Origin: a virus
Taxonomy: Duplodnaviria > Heunggongvirae > Uroviricota > Caudoviricetes
Strand: one strand, 5' to 3'
DNA length: 39,386 bases
Virus record (IMG/VR): IMGVR_UViG_642979322_000008
Positions 9,800-39,386 of the stretch are shown piece by piece; within the stretch, counting starts at the first letter, position 1; the number at the start of each line of letters is the position of its first letter. Both the position numbers and the translations under genes were made by a program. The notes beneath the pieces are model-generated. The model saw only the letters and a program-made list of their open reading frames with translations. It ran no database searches and had not been told where the DNA came from.

Positions 9800-10225
9800 A
9801 TGGCAGAAACTCAGATGAGCATGTTTGGTGGTGACAGTGAGCAACTGCACGCCCTTATCGACCGCCTTGATGACATCCCTGATGATGTTCTCAAAAAGAA
9901 CTGGCCGCGGACCCTGTCAGAACTGGTTGAAGTCACCGGCGCAGAACTTCAGCGTCAGGGGATTGAGCCGGTACTGGCCGGTAAACTGGCACGCAAGGTG
10001 GCTGCGGCTCAGGCAGCCTATATGGGCGGACGGGGTTATTACCTGCCGGTCGGGGAATCTCTCTTTGCCGAGCTGCGAAACAATGAGATATTTTCGCGCT
10101 GGGACCGGGGCGAGAAAATTGAATCCCTTCGCCGCCATTACCGGATGTCAGAAACCCAGATTTATACCGTCATACGCGAACAGCGCCGTCTGCATCTGGC
10201 AAGAACGCAACCGCCACTTTTCTGA
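9800..10225 (+). CDS. Mor/C-family transcription activator (middle/late gene activator)
   Basis: 141-aa ORF with C-terminal HTH (ETQIYTVIREQRRL); architecture like Mu Mor and C; only one such gene found. Confidence 0.75.
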   Translation: MAETQMSMFGGDSEQLHALIDRLDDIPDDVLKKNWPRTLSELVEVTGAELQRQGIEPVLAGKLARKVAAAQAAYMGGRGYYLPVGESLFAELRNNEIFSRWDRGEKIESLRRHYRMSETQIYTVIREQRRLHLARTQPPLF

Positions 10226-10296
10226 TATTCCGCAAAGCCTGCCGCCTCTCCTTCACCGTTACGCTGACTCAGAGAACATCATGAGACAGCGTAACA

Positions 10297-10797
10297 ATGC
10301 CAAAACTCCCCGCACCACTGCGTAAAAAGCTGATTGCCCTTGTTCTGGCCGGTGCCGGGACGTTCACGATTGCCACGCATTACACCGGTTACTGGGAAGG
10401 GAAAGAAAACTCCACGTATATCGATCCCACCGGTACACCCACCATCTGTTACGGCCATACCGGCCCGGATGTGAAACCGGGTATGACCCTGACAGATGAA
10501 GAATGCCTGGAACTACTGGAAAAGGACATGAAATGGGCCTTTGCGGCCATTGATCGGCGTGTTCAGGTGCCGCTTACCCGTGGTCAGACGGTGGCGCTGG
10601 CTTCGTGGATCTTCTGGGCCGGTGAAACGAACTTTCGCAACTCCACGCTTCTGCGCCTGATCAATGCCGGGCAGATGCCCGCGTCCTGTAAGCAGTATAT
10701 CCGCTGGATTTATTCAAAGGGGGTGAAACTCCCCGGCCTTGAGGCCCGCCGTTCGGCGGATGAATGGTTATGTCGCTACGACTTGCCGAAAGTCTGA
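10297..10797 (+). CDS. lys: SAR endolysin (lysozyme, T4-like glycoside hydrolase fold)
   Basis: N-terminal signal-anchor LIALVLAGAGTFTIATHY followed by E...D...T catalytic spacing (YWEGKENSTYIDPTGTPT). Confidence 0.8.
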   Translation: MPKLPAPLRKKLIALVLAGAGTFTIATHYTGYWEGKENSTYIDPTGTPTICYGHTGPDVKPGMTLTDEECLELLEKDMKWAFAAIDRRVQVPLTRGQTVALASWIFWAGETNFRNSTLLRLINAGQMPASCKQYIRWIYSKGVKLPGLEARRSADEWLCRYDLPKV

Positions 10798-14523: not shown

Positions 14524-16112
14524 TGGGACGCATAATTGATCTTGACGGAAAACCTTTCTCCTTTGACCCGGAGATGCAGAGTGCCGTGCTGGATATTCCG
14601 CAGATTGCCAGCCGTTATATTGAACATCCGGCCTCGGGTATCACCCCGAACCGGGCGGCGCAGTGCCTTCGCGGGGCTGAACGTGGCGATCTGATTGCCC
14701 AGTCCGATCTGGCGGCTGACATTGAAGAAAAGGATACCCACCTTTTTGCAGAGCTGGGCAAGCGACGTCTTGCCATTCAGAGCGTGCCCTGGAGTATTGA
14801 GCCGCCACCGAACGCCAGCGCGAATGAGAAAAAGGACGCGGAAATGCTCGACGAATATCTGCATTCCGCCGACTGGTTTGATGCCATGCTGTTTGACGCC
14901 ACGGATGCCATCCTGAAGGGCTATTCCTGCATGGAGATTGAGCACGGGATGCTCGGTAAAATGCACATCATCCGCGCCATCCGCTGGCGTGACAGCGGGC
15001 ATTTCTGCCTTAACCCGGATGATTTGAGCGAACTGCGGCTGCGTGACGGCAGCCATGCCGGGGTGGCGTTTCAGCCCTTTGGCTGGGTAGTGCATCAGTC
15101 ACGTTCACGCACCGGTTACGGTGGTGCGACGGGGCTTGTCAGAACGCTTATCTGGCCGTTCATTTTCAAAAACTATTCCGTGCGCGATCTGGCTGAATTT
15201 CTGGAGGTGTACGGCCTGCCGATGAAGGTCGGTAAATACCCGTCCGGGGCAACATCGGAGCAGAAAAGCGCCCTGATGCGGGCGGTGATGGATATCGGGC
15301 GACGTACAGGCGGGATCATCCCGGCCGGGATGTCGCTGGAGTTTCAGGTAGCCGCGAACGGTCAGGCCGATCCGTTTGAAACCATGATTTCGTGGGGGGA
15401 GCGTTCCATCTCCAAAGCTATCCTCGGCGGCACGCTGACCACGGAAGCCGGAGACAAAGGCGCGCGCTCACTGGGTGAGGTGCATAACGAGGTGCGCCGG
15501 GAAATCAGGGATTCTGATTTACGTCAGCTGGCCGCCACGCTGAACCGCGATCTGGTGTATCCGCTGTATGCCCTGAACACCGCCCACGCCATAGATATCC
15601 GTCGCCTGCCGCGTATCTGTTTCCAGACAAAAGAGCCGGGGGATATCACCAAAATCACCAGTGCGGTGATGCAGCTCAGTACGGGGATGGATATTCCTGA
15701 TCCCTGGGTACGGGACCAGACCGGTATTCCACAGCCTGCCCCCGGTGAAGCCATCTTCCGTGTCCGTCAGAGTGGCAATGAACCTGCTCAGACAGACAAA
15801 GAGATGCCACCGGAAAAACAGGAGAAGACAGAGCAGACGGCGCTGTCAGCCCGACTGCCGGAAGCGAAAAGCAGCCCCCGTGATGAACTGGACGATATGG
15901 GGGATGCGGTGCCTGCCCGCCGGTTACAGGACGCTATCGACCCGCTGCTGGAGCCGGTCATTGATGCCATCAGAACGCGGGGGCTGGCGGATGCGCTGGC
16001 AGACCTGCCTGCCCTTTACCGTGAAATGGATGATTCCCGCCTGATGACGCTGCTCAGTGATGCCATGTTTGCTGCGGAAATGAAGGGGATGCTGGATGGC
16101 ACAGGGGATTGA
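14514..16112 (+). CDS. portal protein (Mu gp29-like)
   Basis: 532-aa ORF, GTG start overlapping terminase stop. Confidence 0.8.
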   Translation: MLVVGRIIDLDGKPFSFDPEMQSAVLDIPQIASRYIEHPASGITPNRAAQCLRGAERGDLIAQSDLAADIEEKDTHLFAELGKRRLAIQSVPWSIEPPPNASANEKKDAEMLDEYLHSADWFDAMLFDATDAILKGYSCMEIEHGMLGKMHIIRAIRWRDSGHFCLNPDDLSELRLRDGSHAGVAFQPFGWVVHQSRSRTGYGGATGLVRTLIWPFIFKNYSVRDLAEFLEVYGLPMKVGKYPSGATSEQKSALMRAVMDIGRRTGGIIPAGMSLEFQVAANGQADPFETMISWGERSISKAILGGTLTTEAGDKGARSLGEVHNEVRREIRDSDLRQLAATLNRDLVYPLYALNTAHAIDIRRLPRICFQTKEPGDITKITSAVMQLSTGMDIPDPWVRDQTGIPQPAPGEAIFRVRQSGNEPAQTDKEMPPEKQEKTEQTALSARLPEAKSSPRDELDDMGDAVPARRLQDAIDPLLEPVIDAIRTRGLADALADLPALYREMDDSRLMTLLSDAMFAAEMKGMLDGTGD

Positions 16113-17421
16113 TTTAGGTTATGCCGCCACCCTTCCCTCAAAAGAGGCGGTGGCATACTTCCGCGCCAAAGGGGCGCATATCAGCTGGAACTGGTTCGAA
16201 ACAGACGCAGATGTTCATGCCCGATCGTTCACGGCGGCAAAAGCGGCACGCCTGGACGTACTGACCACACTACAGGCGGAAGTGCAACGGGCCATTGATG
16301 AGGGGATTTCACAGAAAGCATTTATCCGCACACTGACACCCCGCCTGCAAAAGCTGGGATGGTGGGGGAAGCAGATTGTGGTGGACAGCGCCGGTAACGC
16401 AGAAGAAGTACAGCTGGGCAGTCCCCGCCGTCTGGCGCTGATTTACAACGTGAACACCCGCGTGGCTTACAATGCCGGGCGTTACACGCAGATGATGAAC
16501 AACACGGACACGCATCCGTTCTGGCAGTATGTGGCGGTCATGGACAGCCGTACCCGCCCGTCGCATTCCACCCTTAACGGTCTGGTATTCCGCTATGATG
16601 ATCCGTTCTGGAAAACACACTACCCACCCAATGGCTGGAACTGCCGCTGCCGTGTGCGGCCATTGTCTCAGGCCCGTCTGGATGCAATGGGGTTATCCGT
16701 TTCATCCGGTGAGGATCATCTCTCCACCCGCAATGTTGAGGCTGGCGTGGATAAACAGACCGGAGAAGTCAGAGAAATGCCGGTGACCACATATTCAGAT
16801 GGCACCAGAACCATGACACCGGATGTGGGCTGGTCATATAACCCCGGTTCGGCGGCGTTCGGCACAGACCAGGCGCTGATCCGTAAACTGATCGAGGTGA
16901 AAAGCCCGGCGTTACGGGAAATGGTGGTTCAGGAGATGAACAACAGCCCGGAGCGGCAGCTGGCGTTCCGCATCTGGGCAAAAAATATCATGAAAACCCG
17001 GCGCGGTGGTCACGATATCCGCACGCTGGGCTTTATGACCGAAAGTATTGCGCAGGCAGTGGAAAGCCGGACAGGAACGCCACCGGCCCGCCTGCTGGCG
17101 ATGAGCGGTAAAAATGTGCTCCATGCGGACAGTGTGAAACATCAGAATGACGGTATCGCCCTGACGCCGGAGGATTTCGCGCAGCTTCCCGCCATGCTGG
17201 CTGCCCCCGATGCCGTGCTGTGGGATCATGTCCATCAGAACCTGCTTTACATCACTGAAACCCGTGACGGAACGGCAAAGATTGCCGTCAATGCGCCTTA
17301 TGGTGTGAAGCGCCAGCCGGATAAGCTGGATGTGGTAATTAATGCTTACCGGGTAAATAAATTTGATATTGAAAAAGCAATAGAGGGCGGAAAGCTGGAA
17401 CTACTGGAAGGTAAATTGTAA
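16096..17421 (+). CDS. head morphogenesis protein, Mu F (gp30)-like
   Basis: 441-aa ORF following portal, overlapping start. Confidence 0.75.
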   Translation: MAQGIDLGYAATLPSKEAVAYFRAKGAHISWNWFETDADVHARSFTAAKAARLDVLTTLQAEVQRAIDEGISQKAFIRTLTPRLQKLGWWGKQIVVDSAGNAEEVQLGSPRRLALIYNVNTRVAYNAGRYTQMMNNTDTHPFWQYVAVMDSRTRPSHSTLNGLVFRYDDPFWKTHYPPNGWNCRCRVRPLSQARLDAMGLSVSSGEDHLSTRNVEAGVDKQTGEVREMPVTTYSDGTRTMTPDVGWSYNPGSAAFGTDQALIRKLIEVKSPALREMVVQEMNNSPERQLAFRIWAKNIMKTRRGGHDIRTLGFMTESIAQAVESRTGTPPARLLAMSGKNVLHADSVKHQNDGIALTPEDFAQLPAMLAAPDAVLWDHVHQNLLYITETRDGTAKIAVNAPYGVKRQPDKLDVVINAYRVNKFDIEKAIEGGKLELLEGKL

Positions 17422-17539
17422 GCCGGTGACGGGGGTCGAACCCGCATAAACATATGACCCCTGAGGGTTTATGCCGCTTTACCAGTTAAGAGTACACCGG
17501 CCTGTATTTATTTTAATCAGATAGTTTTAAGGAGGCAAC

Positions 17540-18013
17540 ATGTCATCCATCGATGCAGCCGTGGTGGTGGACGTTGCGCGTCTCCAGCGGGTCTTTGCCC
17601 GGCTTCAGTTTGTGGGTGGTGGAAAAGACCTGGCCCGCAGTGTGGCGTCCAGCCTTCTGTCATCGTCAGAAATGGCGTTTGAACAGGAAAAAGAGCCGGA
17701 CGGCGAACGCTGGCATGACTGGTCAGATCCTTACCGCAAGTGGCGTACCCGTAAGGGAAACATGCCCGGCAAAATCCTGACGCTGAACGGCGATCTGGCC
17801 CGACGCCTGACCACGGATTATGGCGATACCTGGGCGCTGATTGGATCAAATGAGCCTTATGCGGCCATTCATCAGTGGGGTGGCCTGCCAGGTATGCCGC
17901 CTGGACCGGCGGCCATTGGTGCACGTCCGTATATGGGTTTTGATCAGGTGGCAGAGCAGGAGATCATGGACGAAATCAGAAAACGCTTTAAAAAGGCCAC
18001 AGAAACGCCTTAA
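17540..18013 (+). CDS. virion morphogenesis protein, Mu G-like
   Basis: 157-aa ORF with RBS AAGGAGG; position between F and I. Confidence 0.7.
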   Translation: MSSIDAAVVVDVARLQRVFARLQFVGGGKDLARSVASSLLSSSEMAFEQEKEPDGERWHDWSDPYRKWRTRKGNMPGKILTLNGDLARRLTTDYGDTWALIGSNEPYAAIHQWGGLPGMPPGPAAIGARPYMGFDQVAEQEIMDEIRKRFKKATETP

Positions 18014-18189
18014 TTGTTTAAGGTATGCAAATGCATTACCTTACCCCCTTCAGGCGCGTGTCGTGATTTTCTAACCTGTATTTAACGGGCTTTAAAATCT
18101 GCGTGAAGCGCCTTTGTATTTTTCCCCTGGAAGCACTTCCTGAAATCCCGCAAAACCCGCCCTGAAAATTCCCGGCCTATGCTGCCGGA

Positions 18190-19314
18190 ATGAAGACGAA
18201 AAACACGCCCAAACTTGCTTATGCCATTCTGAATGCCATCAGCCTGTCCGCAGACGGGGACGGTGACTGGTGTCAGATCATGCCAGCCGGTCGGGTAAAG
18301 GCCCGTGACGGTCGCCCGGAAAAACCGGCGGAAGGCTGGCTGATCAACCATGCAGCCGTTGAGCGCATGGTCTCCCGTGTTGTGGCGCTCAATCAGCCGG
18401 TGAAAATTGACTACAACCACCAGACCCTGATTGAGGGACATCCGGCACCGGCTGCCGGTTTTGTGATGGCCTCACCGGAGAATTTTCGCTTCAGTGAAGA
18501 GCGAGGTTTCGAGGTGCGCCCGAAGTGGAACCCTCCGGCCCTTGAACATCTGCGTAATAACGAATTCCCCTGGTTTTCACCGGTGATTGGCTATGACGAG
18601 AGCACCGGCGAACCTGTCGAACTTCGGATGCTGGCTATTACCGGTGACCCCGGTCTGACCGGCATGAATCCTGTCGCCGCACTGTCGGCGGATGACCTTT
18701 ATAACGCCTTAAACCCTCCTTTAAAGGATACCTCCATGAATGAGCAATTACGCCAGTTGCTGACGGCGCTCGGTCTGACCGTGGCTGACGGTGACGAATT
18801 TACGCCGGAGCTGGGCACGGCGGCGCTGTCTGCCCTCACCGGGATCAAAACCCGTGCGGATGCACACGACAACCTGAAAACACAGGTCGCCAGTCTGTCG
18901 GCAGAGCTGGAAACCGCAAAAGGCACACCGGCTGGCGGCATTATTGATCTGACGAAATACGTGCCCGTTGAAACGTATAACGCCCTGCGTACCGAATACG
19001 TTGCGCTGTCGGCGCAGCACGGCAGCACCACGCTGGAGCAGGTGCTGGACAAGGCTGAATCCGAAGGGCGCATCTTCAAAAGCGAACGCGGCTATCTGGA
19101 ACAACTGGGCGGGCAGATTGGCGTTGCGGCACTTTCTGCACAGCTTGACGCCCGCCAGCCGGTTGCGGCCCTGACCTCTCTTCAGACCGACACCGTGACC
19201 GTGCCGGATAAAAAGACTGCCACCGCTGCGCTGTCGGCTGAAGATATCGCGGCCGCCAAACTGCTGGGTAAAACCGAAGCCGAGTTCCTGAAAATGAAAG
19301 AGGAAATGCAATAA
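18190..19314 (+). CDS. prohead protease/scaffold, Mu I-like
   Basis: 374-aa ORF upstream of major head gene; Ala/Leu-rich C-terminal scaffold-like half. Confidence 0.75.
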   Translation: MKTKNTPKLAYAILNAISLSADGDGDWCQIMPAGRVKARDGRPEKPAEGWLINHAAVERMVSRVVALNQPVKIDYNHQTLIEGHPAPAAGFVMASPENFRFSEERGFEVRPKWNPPALEHLRNNEFPWFSPVIGYDESTGEPVELRMLAITGDPGLTGMNPVAALSADDLYNALNPPLKDTSMNEQLRQLLTALGLTVADGDEFTPELGTAALSALTGIKTRADAHDNLKTQVASLSAELETAKGTPAGGIIDLTKYVPVETYNALRTEYVALSAQHGSTTLEQVLDKAESEGRIFKSERGYLEQLGGQIGVAALSAQLDARQPVAALTSLQTDTVTVPDKKTATAALSAEDIAAAKLLGKTEAEFLKMKEEMQ

Positions 19315-20261
19315 TGCCTACCCCGATTACACCGGCGATGATCACAGCCCTGATGACGGGCTACCGTTCTGATTTTCAGGCCGGGATGTCCATGGCCCCG
19401 TCGCAGTATAAAAAAATTGCGATGACCGTGCCCTCCACATCGAAATCCAACACCTACGGCTGGCTGGGGCAGTTCCCGCAGTTCCGTGAGTGGATCGGCT
19501 CCCGCGTCATCGAGAAGATGAAAGCCTATGGCTATGCCATCGTGAACAAAACTTTTGAAGGCACTGTCGCCATTAGCCGCGATGACTTCGAAGACGACAA
19601 CCTCGGTATTTATTCCCCGTTGTTCCAGGAGATGGGGCGCGCTGCGGCGGTACAACCGGATGAGCTGGTCTTTGCTGCCCTGCGTGACGGGATCAGTGCG
19701 GCCTGCTATGACGGTCAGAACTTCTTTGATACCGAACATCCGGTTTACCCCAAAGTGGATGGCTCCGGGGATGCGCAGATGGTCAGCAATATGTTTGTGG
19801 CAAAAACCGGCTCTGTCGGCGCACAGGCTGATTACAGCGGTCCGGCCTGGTATCTGCTTGACTGCTCCCGCGCGGTAAAACCGCTGATTTATCAGGATCG
19901 CCGTAAGGCTGAACTGGTTGCCCAGACCAAAGTCGATGAAGGTCGCGCATTCACCGATAACGAATTTGTGTTTGGTGCATCCGCCCGTCGCAATGTGGGC
20001 TACGGCTTCTGGCAGATGGCCTACATGATGCAGTCACCGCTGACGCTGGATGCACTGTGGCACGGCTGGTCAGCCATGCGCGAATTTACCGCTGACGGTG
20101 GCCGCAAACTCGGCATTAAACCCACCCATATTGTTGTCCCCACCTCGCTGGAAAAACAGGCGGTGCAGCTGCTGGAGCGTGAACTGTTCGCAGACGGAAA
20201 CGCAACCGTCTCTAACGAGATGAAGGGTAAGCTGGAGCTGGTTGTCGCGGATTATCTGTAA
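19314..20261 (+). CDS. major head subunit, Mu T-like
   Basis: 315-aa ORF, start overlapping protease stop. Confidence 0.8.
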   Translation: MPTPITPAMITALMTGYRSDFQAGMSMAPSQYKKIAMTVPSTSKSNTYGWLGQFPQFREWIGSRVIEKMKAYGYAIVNKTFEGTVAISRDDFEDDNLGIYSPLFQEMGRAAAVQPDELVFAALRDGISAACYDGQNFFDTEHPVYPKVDGSGDAQMVSNMFVAKTGSVGAQADYSGPAWYLLDCSRAVKPLIYQDRRKAELVAQTKVDEGRAFTDNEFVFGASARRNVGYGFWQMAYMMQSPLTLDALWHGWSAMREFTADGGRKLGIKPTHIVVPTSLEKQAVQLLERELFADGNATVSNEMKGKLELVVADYL

Positions 20262-20304: not shown

Positions 20305-20733
20305 ATGAATGAACATCACACTGTGGCAGCAACAGATGATTCAGGTCTTCAGGTCAGTGGTGACAATTCTGTCACGGTGCTGGCAGAAGTGCGTTGCAGT
20401 CGTTCGGCGTTTCGTCGTGCGGGGTTCCTGTTCACGCGTGGACGTCAGCAGGTTGAGGTCACCCCGGAGCAGCTTGCCCGACTGGAGGAGGAGCCATGCC
20501 TCACTGTGCGAATACTACAGACGTCTGCTGATGATGCGGGGAGCGTGGCGGGTGTGGTTCATGCAGTGGCCGGTACAGATTTAGCCGAAGCCGAAGCCGA
20601 AGCCGAAGCCGAAGCCGAAGCCGAAGCCGAAGCCGAAGCCGAAGCCGAAGCCGAAGCCGAAGCCGAAGCCGAAGCCGGACAGGATGCTCCCCGGAAAAAG
20701 ACCGGTAACAAAGCGGAACAGGCCCGTGCATGA
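20305..20733 (+). CDS. small head-region protein with (Ala-Glu)15 tract
   Basis: 142-aa ORF with GGAGG RBS; contains in-frame (GCCGAA)15. Confidence 0.55.
   Translation: MNEHHTVAATDDSGLQVSGDNSVTVLAEVRCSRSAFRRAGFLFTRGRQQVEVTPEQLARLEEEPCLTVRILQTSADDAGSVAGVVHAVAGTDLAEAEAEAEAEAEAEAEAEAEAEAEAEAEAEAGQDAPRKKTGNKAEQARA
20584..20673 (+). repeat. perfect hexanucleotide tandem repeat (GCCGAA)x15
   Basis: Seen directly: 15 uninterrupted GCCGAA units followed by GCCGGA. Confidence 0.95.
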
Positions 20734-26518: not shown

Positions 26519-27854
26519 CGGTCGTGGTGCGTTCCGTGGTGTGCCGTTCCTCGTCTGGCGTGAGCAGCGCGAACGTGGCGGGCGAAACATTGTCCGTCGG
26601 GAATATCCGTTACGGGAAACCGGTGGTGCAGACGATCTGGGACCTAAACTGGCTGAATTTACGTTCAGTGTACTTGTGATGGGGGATGATGTTCAGACAC
26701 AGCGAAATCGTCTGCGTGATGCCCTTCGTGCTCCCGGTGCCGGGGAGCTGCTTCACCCGGATTACGGCACGTTAAATGTGCTGATAAACAGCTTTGAAAG
26801 TCGTTATAACGCTGCTGAACAGGGCGTGGTTGAGTTCACCATTAATGTCACGCCGGTAAGTGATGATACCGCACCTGCTGTCACACAGGACACGGCCGCC
26901 ATTCTGGAGCAGAAGAGTACCACCGCGCTCGGGAAGGTTTTTGAAACCCTGGAAGCGGGCTGGACGGTGATTTCTGACGGAATGCACGATGTCCAGGCAA
27001 TGACCGAAACCATCAGCGATAAGGTGTCCGCCCTGGAAAATGCCGTTTCCGGCATGGGGATTGTACAGGATATCAGTGCCTTTACTGCCACGTTCACGGC
27101 GCTGAAAGGGAATGCCACGGCATTACTGACAGCACCTTCCCGCATGGCCTCATCTTTTGCGGGGCTTTTCAGTGCCCTGATCACCCTGCCATCGCTGCCG
27201 TCACTGTCTTCAGGAGGCCTGAATACCCGGCCCGGTGGCAGTATCGGCCGGACGACATCCGCCTTCTCTCAGGGAATGCCGCAACTGTACAGGACATTAT
27301 CTTCCCTGCGTTACGTGCTGGATGAGCAGGATAATCCGCAGACTCTCATCGGTCTGACACCGGCAGCACAAAAGAATATTCGTCTGATACGGGCGGTAAT
27401 GCAGAGTGCTGCCGTGGTGGCCCAGGCACAGACCGTGGGAAAACTGCTGGATCAGGTTCTCAGTCAGGAAACCCTGCCGGACAGTGACGCAGCCCACCGT
27501 ACCTGGCCTGTCTGGCTGGAAAGTTCAGTTGATCTTCAGCGCATTAACCGTGACTTAAGCGAAGCGCTCGAACGGCAGGTGATGACACTGTCCGGGCAGG
27601 GGTATACCGCCACGGCGCTGACGCTTCGTGATGCCAGACTGGCACTGACAGAGGATCTGAATACACGGGGAGTTCAGCTACCCGGTGCAACAGTAGTGAC
27701 TGTACGTACCACCGAGCCTGCACTGGTGACCCTGTACCGTGCCACCGGGAACAGTACCGGCTGGCAACGTTTTGTGCGCCGTAACGGTATTGTTGATCCG
27801 CTGTTCATTCCCGGAGGCCATTCAGTGGAGGTGATTAGTGAGCAGCAGGGTTGA
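26505..27854 (+). CDS. DNA circulation protein (Mu N-like)
   Basis: ATG at 26505 after GGAGGG; 450-aa product; position after tape measure. Confidence 0.7.
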   Translation: MASGDGRGAFRGVPFLVWREQRERGGRNIVRREYPLRETGGADDLGPKLAEFTFSVLVMGDDVQTQRNRLRDALRAPGAGELLHPDYGTLNVLINSFESRYNAAEQGVVEFTINVTPVSDDTAPAVTQDTAAILEQKSTTALGKVFETLEAGWTVISDGMHDVQAMTETISDKVSALENAVSGMGIVQDISAFTATFTALKGNATALLTAPSRMASSFAGLFSALITLPSLPSLSSGGLNTRPGGSIGRTTSAFSQGMPQLYRTLSSLRYVLDEQDNPQTLIGLTPAAQKNIRLIRAVMQSAAVVAQAQTVGKLLDQVLSQETLPDSDAAHRTWPVWLESSVDLQRINRDLSEALERQVMTLSGQGYTATALTLRDARLALTEDLNTRGVQLPGATVVTVRTTEPALVTLYRATGNSTGWQRFVRRNGIVDPLFIPGGHSVEVISEQQG

Positions 27855-38439: not shown

Positions 38440-38550
38440 AAAACTCAAAAGAAAAGCGCCGATTTAGTATCAAATAAGTTGCGTATCGGCGTTTTTCAGC
38501 GGTATCAAATGAAATGCAAATCGGTATCAAAAAAATCGCCGCGCTATACA
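38440..38550. repeat. prophage right end (attR) with candidate transposase-binding repeats
   Basis: Three GTATCAAA-type repeats (about 38467, 38502, 38524); element ends ...CTATACA, whose complement reads 5'-TGTAT like the Mu left-end start. Confidence 0.55.
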
Positions 38551-39386
38551 CGCATCGTTCCATTCAGCAGCGCGATATCTGCATGGTGTTTCAGTCATAC
38601 GCTCTGTTCCCGCATATGTCGCTGGGCGAAAACGTCGGCTACGGGTTAAAGATGCTCGGCGTGTCGCGTAGCGAAGTAAAGCAGCGGGTGAAAGAGGCGC
38701 TGGCAATGGTGGATCTGGAAGGGTTCGAGGACCGCTATGTCGACCAGATTTCCGGTGGTCAGCAACAGCGCGTGGCGCTGGCCCGCGCGTTGATCCTCAA
38801 ACCAAAGGTGCTGCTGTTTGATGAGCCGTTAAGTAACCTCGATGCCAACCTGCGCCGCAGCATGCGCGATAAGATCCGCGAGCTGCAAAAGCAGTTTAAT
38901 ATCACGTCGCTCTACGTGACTCACGATCAAAGTGAGGCCTTCGCGGTTTCCGACACTGTGCTGGTGATGAATAAAGGTCACATCATGCAGATTGGCTCAC
39001 CGCAGGATCTCTATCGTCAGCCAGCCTCCCGCTTTATGGCAAGTTTTATGGGCGACGCCAACCTGTTCCCGGCGAACTTTAGCGAAGAGTATGTCGATAT
39101 CTACGGTTATCGCCTGCCGCGCGCGGCGCATTTCCCGGTGCAAGGTAGCGGCACCGTCGGCATTCGCCCGGAAGCCATCACCTTAAGCAATCACGGCGAA
39201 GAGAGTCAGCGTTGTGTTATTCGCCATGTCGCCTACATGGGGCCGCAGTACGAAGTGACCGTAGAGTGGCATGGACAGGAGATTTTATTACAAGTAAACG
39301 CCACCCGTTTACAGCCCGATATTGGTGAGCACTATTACCTCGAAATCCATCCTTACGGGATGTTTGTTTTAGCGGATGCGGCATAA
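38551..39386 (+). pseudogene. fbpC: host ABC-transporter ATP-binding protein gene (ferric-uptake FbpC/AfuC-like), 5' part missing due to prophage insertion
   Basis: Frame reads ...[23 protein letters not shown] (Q-loop), LSGGQQQRV signature, Walker B LLFDEP, H-loop VTHDQ and C-terminal regulatory domain; Walker A absent, so the N-terminal ~60 codons lie elsewhere. Gene name from recalled similarity only. Confidence 0.6.

Follow-up and report, generated by a model that had tools for sequence, protein, structure and literature searches.

Bacteriophage Mu's strong gyrase-binding site (SGS) is the textbook case of gyrase recruitment by one DNA site, through which a 37-kb element is folded into a supercoiled domain of its own. 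It is a standard substrate for gyrase mechanics and cryo-EM, and near-central placement between the prophage ends is needed for its optimal function. Oram and Pato are said to have tested the SGS of the Mu-like prophage of Escherichia coli O157:H7 Sakai (Sp18) in Mu in 2004. The Mu SGS comprises a dispensable left arm (-65 to -26), a core (-25 to +25) and a right arm (+26 to +85), of which the first 40 nt are essential (PMC6463007). The right arm is essential for gyrase action (PMC13284261, PMC6463007). The site loses its special behaviour without it, and in the cryo-EM structure the right arm presents the T-segment (PMC13284261, PMC11626157). According to a 2023 review, only one heterologous site could stand in for the Mu SGS and support Mu replication, that of the Mu-like prophage of E. 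coli O157:H7 Sakai, and the SGS from plasmids pSC101 and pBR322 do not replace it (PMC10052514).

In the GenBank record of Mu, the gyrase cut site (17879/17880), a terminator predicted by TransTermHP (17908-17953) and the late promoter P_I (17977-18043) are annotated in the 196-bp gap between genes G and I. For the comparisons below, the cleavage centre of Mu was set between 17877 and 17878 (stagger AATC, 17876-17879). This setting was based on the GenBank cut site, the description '+3 A, +7G +8C' (PMC6463007) and the centred Topo-Seq 133-bp fragment.

Prophage identity and the G-I gap

The window, which means the whole 39,386-nt stretch of DNA analysed, was identified as an Sp18-type Mu-like prophage of E. 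coli O157:H7. Over positions 17400-18800, the window and prophage Sp18 ('Mu-like phage') of E. coli O157:H7 Sakai were 100% identical, and of 5426 complete E. coli genomes, 228 (~4%) contained this region. The window copy was inserted in fbpC, as in strain M1300706002, and Sakai Sp18 in sorM. Homologues of MuA, MuB, a Mor/C-family activator, lysozyme, N, P and Mom were present, with MuA, MuB, C and Mom intact. The right end of the prophage was located at ~38548 and the left end (TGTAACC...) 250 bp left of window base 1, which gave a length of ~38.8 kb from the inferred ends. The target duplication flanking the prophage was imperfect, with TCACG on the left and ACACG on the right (window 38540-38555; L018 405-420). 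The right boundary of Sp18 in the Sakai record mapped ~38 bp inside the right end inferred for the window copy.

The gap between the G and I homologues comprised 176 non-coding bp, extending from the G stop codon, which ends at 18013, to the ATG of gene I. The first-pass annotation had described a 176-bp non-coding G-I spacer; its coordinates were exact, and the flanking genes matched as G and I in Pfam (Table 1). The G homologue shared 54% amino acid identity with Mu G and the I homologue 51% with Mu I, the N-termini of the I proteins being homologous. The annotation had also placed the spacer about 18 kb in from the left end, near the genome centre. The predicted gyrase centre (18031/18032) lay at 47.1% of the ~38.8 kb, with the Mu cut site at 48.7%, and the distance to the left end was right as well, although the window starts inside the prophage. 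With 47.7% G+C compared to 53.5% for the prophage, the gap was more AT-rich.

A small gene or a known RNA in the gap was considered and rejected. No credible ORF was present in the gap, which held just mechanical ORFs of 20-23 aa or ORFs entering from outside. The Rfam search of the gap found no family and ARAGORN found no tRNA in it. Taken as a whole, the gap is very likely a composite regulatory region homologous to the Mu G-I region.

Two features were recorded in the neighbourhood of the gap. The F-G intergenic gap (17422-17539) contained a tRNA-like element on the minus strand (17421-17501), with an Rfam tRNA score of 31.4 bits (gathering score 29). Its acceptor, D and T arms were good and the anticodon region carried a 15-nt insert. 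In numerous E. coli genomes, the element is annotated by NCBI PGAP as 'tRNA-OTHER'; ARAGORN does not detect it. Since F and G overlap in Mu, the 118-bp F-G gap represents an insertion in the Sp18 lineage. Downstream of the major head gene, ORF 20305-20733 contained a perfect hexanucleotide tandem repeat (AGCCGA x 15.8, window 20583-20677), which encodes an (Ala-Glu)n run.

Table 1. Genes and predicted elements in and around the G-I gap and at the second late promoter; positions are those of the window.
Feature	Position	Strand	Description
F homologue	16096-17421		Pfam Phage_Mu_F
Gene G homologue (virion morphogenesis protein)	17540-18013	+	Pfam PF05069 Phage_tail_S, 2.1e-33
Predicted SGS left arm (-65 to -26)	17966-18006		Within last ~48 bp of G; Mu limits (PMC6463007) transferred by alignment
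Predicted SGS core (gyrase gate segment, -25 to +25)	18007-18056		Alignment to Mu
Imperfect palindrome, 10-bp arms	18019-18043		TAAGGTATGC-AAAT-GCA(T)TACCTTA; read from sequence, folded
Terminator-like RNA hairpin	18052-18124	+	Stem AGGCGC/GCGCCU around right-arm block, then UUUGUAUUUUU; fold
Predicted SGS right arm (+26 to +85)	18057-18116		Holds block 18062-18088 and three phased T/A tracts
Predicted late promoter P_I	18148-18183	+	C-box CCGCAAAACCCGCC 18148-18161; -10 TATGCT 18178-18183; no -35
Gene I homologue (head protease/scaffold)	18190-19314	+	Pfam PF10123 Mu-like_Pro, 1e-76
T homologue	19314-20261		Pfam Mu-like_gpT
Predicted late promoter P_lys	10230-10266		CCGCAAAGCCTGCC-N16-TACGCTG; between Mor/C-family gene and lysozyme gene

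Predicted strong gyrase site

With a probability that we put at roughly 0.85, the G-I gap holds the central SGS of the Sp18-type prophage, the counterpart of that of Mu. Homology, position, conservation and phasing were observed here, and the function of the Sakai site and the loop mechanism are taken from the literature. The strongest similarity was found in a block at 18062-18088 (CGTGATTTTCTAACCTGTATTTAACGG), which was identical to Mu 17908-17934 (CGGGATTTTTAAACCGGTATTTAACGG) at 23 of 27 positions and corresponds to +30 to +57. The Smith-Waterman score of 34 compared with 16.7 +/- 2.3 for dinucleotide shuffles (z 7.4), and 0 of 300 shuffles reached it (maximum 25). Alignment to the Mu SGS had been proposed in the first-pass annotation as a check, with a lack of similarity counting against the idea; similarity was present in the form of this block. 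In both Sp18 and Mu, the block begins 48 nt past the G stop codon and falls within that part of the right arm which is essential. When a profile from which Sp18 had been left out was applied with nhmmer to the whole 39-kb window, its top match was at 18055-18092 (E 3.8e-4; next best 0.067). A broader nhmmer profile, again without Sp18, had its top match in the window at 18055-18091 (E 0.039). In blastn searches of the 176 bp against the phage collection, just two Sp18-like elements inserted in Stx phages and chance matches were obtained. Mu was not matched by blastn because its similarity is too short for this method.

By register with Mu, the SGS would extend over ~17966-18116, starting ~48 bp inside G and taking up the left two-thirds of the gap. 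The predicted 4-bp cleavage stagger at ~18030-18033 (AATG) was aligned with AATC of Mu by MAFFT, with a single gap left of the centre, and the cleavage position in Sp18 is thus estimated to ~+/-5 bp. The dyad of the palindrome (18030/18031) was at most 1 bp away from the aligned cleavage centre. The palindrome was not strictly conserved, showing three changes in strain FORC_029.

In the right arm, T|A junctions were located at ~18072/73, 18083/84 and 18093/94 (+41, +52 and +62), with spacings of 11 and 10 bp. The A/T periodicity at 10.75-11 bp in a 64-bp stretch of the right arm ranked in the 94th-97th percentile of the window, with the Mu control in the 99.5th. Gyrase preference was also approached through the number of matches to the published 133-bp Topo-Seq consensus, counted by base or by G+C/A+T class. 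In this count, the true Mu SGS was not among the top sites of Mu. The consensus-match proxy had failed its positive control and was discarded as invalid.

The first-pass annotation had taken the spacer itself as the candidate SGS. The reading as SGS was supported by the right-arm block that matches Mu, together with the function of the Sakai site as stated in the review (PMC10052514). The equation of the site with the whole spacer was not: the predicted SGS reaches into G, and the right-hand part of the spacer is the predicted C-dependent late promoter described below. The SGS of Sp18 was already known, having been identified and tested before. The predicted site is presumed to be the tested Sakai site on the basis of the review sentence (PMC10052514) and of the identity of the region to Sakai Sp18. 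From the alignments, folds and motif searches we infer the exact cleavage position, the terminator function and the start site of the promoter.

Conservation within E. coli and across Mu-like relatives

The conservation within E. coli was calculated from nine copies, whose G genes were 94.5-97.9% nucleotide-identical to that of the window copy. Variable columns made up 14.7% of the whole gap and 38.7% of 18117-18146, compared to 0 of 40 columns in 18057-18096 and 1 of 20 in +66 to +85. The hypergeometric probability of 0/40 was 7e-4, from a small sample of nine related and not independent copies. The lack of variation across the essential right arm was therefore used as supporting evidence only, and the conservation of the block could partly reflect a terminator function.

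Comparison of window 18185-18800 with L002, L024 and L025 showed a mosaic junction where gene I starts, directly after the promoter. In some E. coli and Stx-phage-borne copies, G and the gap were 95-98% identical and I just ~61% (nucleotide level). An apparently better conservation of the gap than of its flanks in the Stx-phage copies was dropped as an argument, since the low identity of the flank results from the mosaic junction at gene I and not from selection.

Searches of species genomes and viral contigs with G yielded 7 enterobacterial prophages and 79 viral loci. Their multiple alignment showed a conserved core GGYATRC..WTSA. The right-arm motif of the relatives consisted of three T3-5/A3-4 tracts, TTTTAAACGC-N8-GATTTTTAAAC-GGG-TTTTAAACGGGG, with T|A junctions 20-21 and 11-12 bp apart. 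With a profile built without Sp18, the block was found downstream of G in 57 of the 59 distinct sequences having the G stop and downstream sequence. It was present in every contig with a G identity of at least 41%, among them, with a weak match only (E ~0.1), L062 and L063. The two sequences without the block had G identities of 29-32%. Sp18 was the most divergent member of the block family, scoring 15 bits compared to 23-76 in the other groups, except for L062 and L063 with ~6 bits. It was without the first T/A tract of the motif and had an extra tract further out. Pairwise Smith-Waterman comparisons with the gaps of Citrobacter, Erwinia, Kluyvera and Edwardsiella were not significant alone (z 0-2.4), and the relation to distant gaps was visible only in the multiple alignment and the profiles.

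The IMG/VR contigs L093-L102, with G 41-44% and I ~35% identical to Sp18, carried a near-perfect right-arm motif (GATTTTTAAACGGGTTTTAAACGGGG) ~25-70 nt past the G stop. The non-coding block is thus better conserved across the family than the flanking proteins.

Terminator-like hairpin, predicted late promoter and 5' end of gene I

The part of the hairpin at 18052-18113 folded with -23.7 kcal/mol (z -3.4) and a long loop, and 0 of 200 shuffles were as stable. Mu 17907-17947, in the region of the terminator annotated in the Mu record, folded likewise. In the Kluyvera relatives, the hairpin was not conserved, as the fold was no better than shuffles (z +0.5). The lys-to-G late transcript probably ends at the full element, 18052-18124.

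A C-dependent late promoter of gene I is predicted in the right-hand 45 bp of the gap, with 30 nt from the start of the box to the -10 hexamer. A search with the box alone revealed a copy at ~10229-10243, with TACGCT at the same spacing. This twin was placed as P_lys is in Mu, between the Mor/C-family activator gene (ORF 9800-10225, Pfam Mor 2.8e-32) and the lysozyme gene (10297-10797). Both 18148-18184 and 10230-10266 carried CCGCAAARCCYGCC-N16-TAYGCTG. The Sp18 box pattern, searched with as many as three mismatches allowed, gave no counterparts of P_P or P_mom. A loose late-promoter candidate was noted near 27450. In consensus scans of the gap, no sigma-70 promoter was found and the hairpin 18052-18113 was not called by the simple terminator scan. 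Both results agree with a promoter that depends on an activator and with a long hairpin of atypical form.

The ATG of gene I was located 6 nt past the -10 hexamer (window 18178-18192), and no Shine-Dalgarno sequence fits in between. A leader of ~25 nt with a Shine-Dalgarno sequence was present in Mu, Kluyvera and Erwinia, whereas Sp18 and Citrobacter braakii (L006) lacked it. Hence the mRNA of I, the head protease/scaffold gene, may be leaderless. In a further reading that we regard as tentative and rather doubtful, the stretch would be triple-coded in the Sp18 lineage. The right arm would serve as SGS and as the lys-to-G terminator hairpin; in addition, the leader would have been lost in Sp18 and Citrobacter, with P_I starting transcription directly on the A of the ATG or beside it and a leaderless mRNA for the abundant I protein as the product. 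Neither the doubling of an SGS right arm as a terminator nor a leaderless I mRNA has been described, to our knowledge.

Alternative explanations and proposed mechanism

The gap could also be an operon boundary alone, made up of the lys-to-G terminator and P_I, with the block kept for its RNA hairpin and without special gyrase affinity. The promoter part of this explanation is well supported, and the block does lie inside a stable hairpin with a U-rich tail in Sp18 and in Mu, where a terminator is annotated. However, the conserved elements of distant relatives are direct, helically phased repeats (TTTTAAACGGG TTTTAAACGGGG) and not inverted ones, and the Kluyvera homologue keeps the block though it folds no better than shuffles. 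SGS function has been reported for the Sakai site (PMC10052514), and the right arm of Mu is essential (PMC13284261, PMC6463007). A boundary without a gyrase site is therefore considered improbable. Less probable still is the assignment of the palindrome with its flanks to another dimeric protein, such as a phage regulator or nucleoid protein, or to an mRNA-stabilising 3' hairpin of G, gyrase being incidental. The 10-bp-arm palindrome directly follows the G stop codon, and a 113-nt stretch containing it and the terminator-like hairpin folded at z -4.1. Its sequence and form were, however, not conserved in the Mu, Kluyvera, Erwinia and Citrobacter relatives, and it carried three substitutions in one E. 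coli relative. Moreover, its dyad falls at the aligned cleavage centre of Mu, which is equally compatible with a gyrase gate segment of two-fold symmetry.

Non-functional filler, left behind where mosaic modules of head genes recombined, would agree with the junction near the start of I and with the copies in which the identity drops from 95-98% in G and the gap to ~61% in I. It is contradicted by the conservation data, as part of the gap was conserved across phages with G proteins just 41-55% identical and part of it was invariant within E. coli. Filler would not stay conserved in this way, and we assign it a negligible probability.

For the reading as an SGS, the following mechanism is proposed from the literature on gyrase and loop formation (PMC3820752, PMC11626157, PMC13284261, PMC6463007). 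Host DNA gyrase would bind the core at ~18007-18056 as its gate segment and cleave near 18030-18033. In the right arm (18057-18116), the phased T/A tracts would wrap around a single C-terminal domain of GyrA and offer the transfer segment, and supercoiling at the SGS would thereby be unusually efficient and processive. After induction, supercoiling would turn the ~39-kb prophage into a single extruded plectonemic loop whose apex is the SGS. The prophage ends (attL and attR) would be brought together, allowing synapsis by the MuA-type transposase, transpososome assembly and replicative transposition. As RNA, the same stretch would form the hairpin ending the lys-to-G late transcript, and the right-hand 45 bp would act as the C-activated promoter of I.

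Comparison with known systems

The current understanding of the SGS is unchanged by the analysis of the Sp18 gap. As the Sp18 site is the sole reported functional heterologous substitute, its comparison with Mu shows which features count. What Mu and Sp18 have kept in common is the right-arm block with its phased T/A tracts; the core sequence and the left arm were not retained. For annotation, the G-I gap of Mu-like prophages should be read as SGS, terminator and P_I.

The site in the window is the same element as the SGS of Sakai Sp18 (100% identity); the two copies differ in their insertion site. The strong gyrase sites of pSC101 and pBR322 resemble the Sp18 SGS as preferred sites of gyrase binding and cleavage with phased flanks. 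However, their sequences showed no relation to the window, and they are not set in a phage.

The G-I gap of Mu is 196 bp long compared to 176 bp in the Sp18-type prophage and is flanked by the same genes. The right-arm block is homologous, and its offset both from the G stop and relative to the aligned cleavage centre is equal in the two phages. As in Sp18, the right arm of Mu overlaps a terminator-like hairpin that is followed by P_I. The T/A tracts at ~+41 and +52/53 are common to both phages, whereas the T6A4 tract of Mu at +20 is missing from Sp18, which has an extra tract at +62. The right-arm periodicity of Sp18 is weaker than that of Mu. The cores differ, with the palindrome GGTATGC-AAAT-GCATTACC in Sp18 and GGCATAAAATCAGCCGC in Mu.

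The C-dependent late promoters of Mu (P_lys, P_I, P_P and P_mom) resemble the predicted Sp18 P_I in having a C-box-like element and a TAnnCT-type -10 hexamer and no -35 element. Counted on the sequences, P_lys, P_I and P_P of Mu have the same 30-nt geometry (CCATAA..-TAGACT). The C-box reads CCGCAAA(A/G)CC in Sp18 and CCATAACCCC in Mu, a difference that implies a changed specificity of the activator. In Mu, a leader of ~26 nt that includes a Shine-Dalgarno sequence precedes the start codon of gene I, whereas in Sp18 the -10 hexamer is separated from the ATG by just 6 nt.
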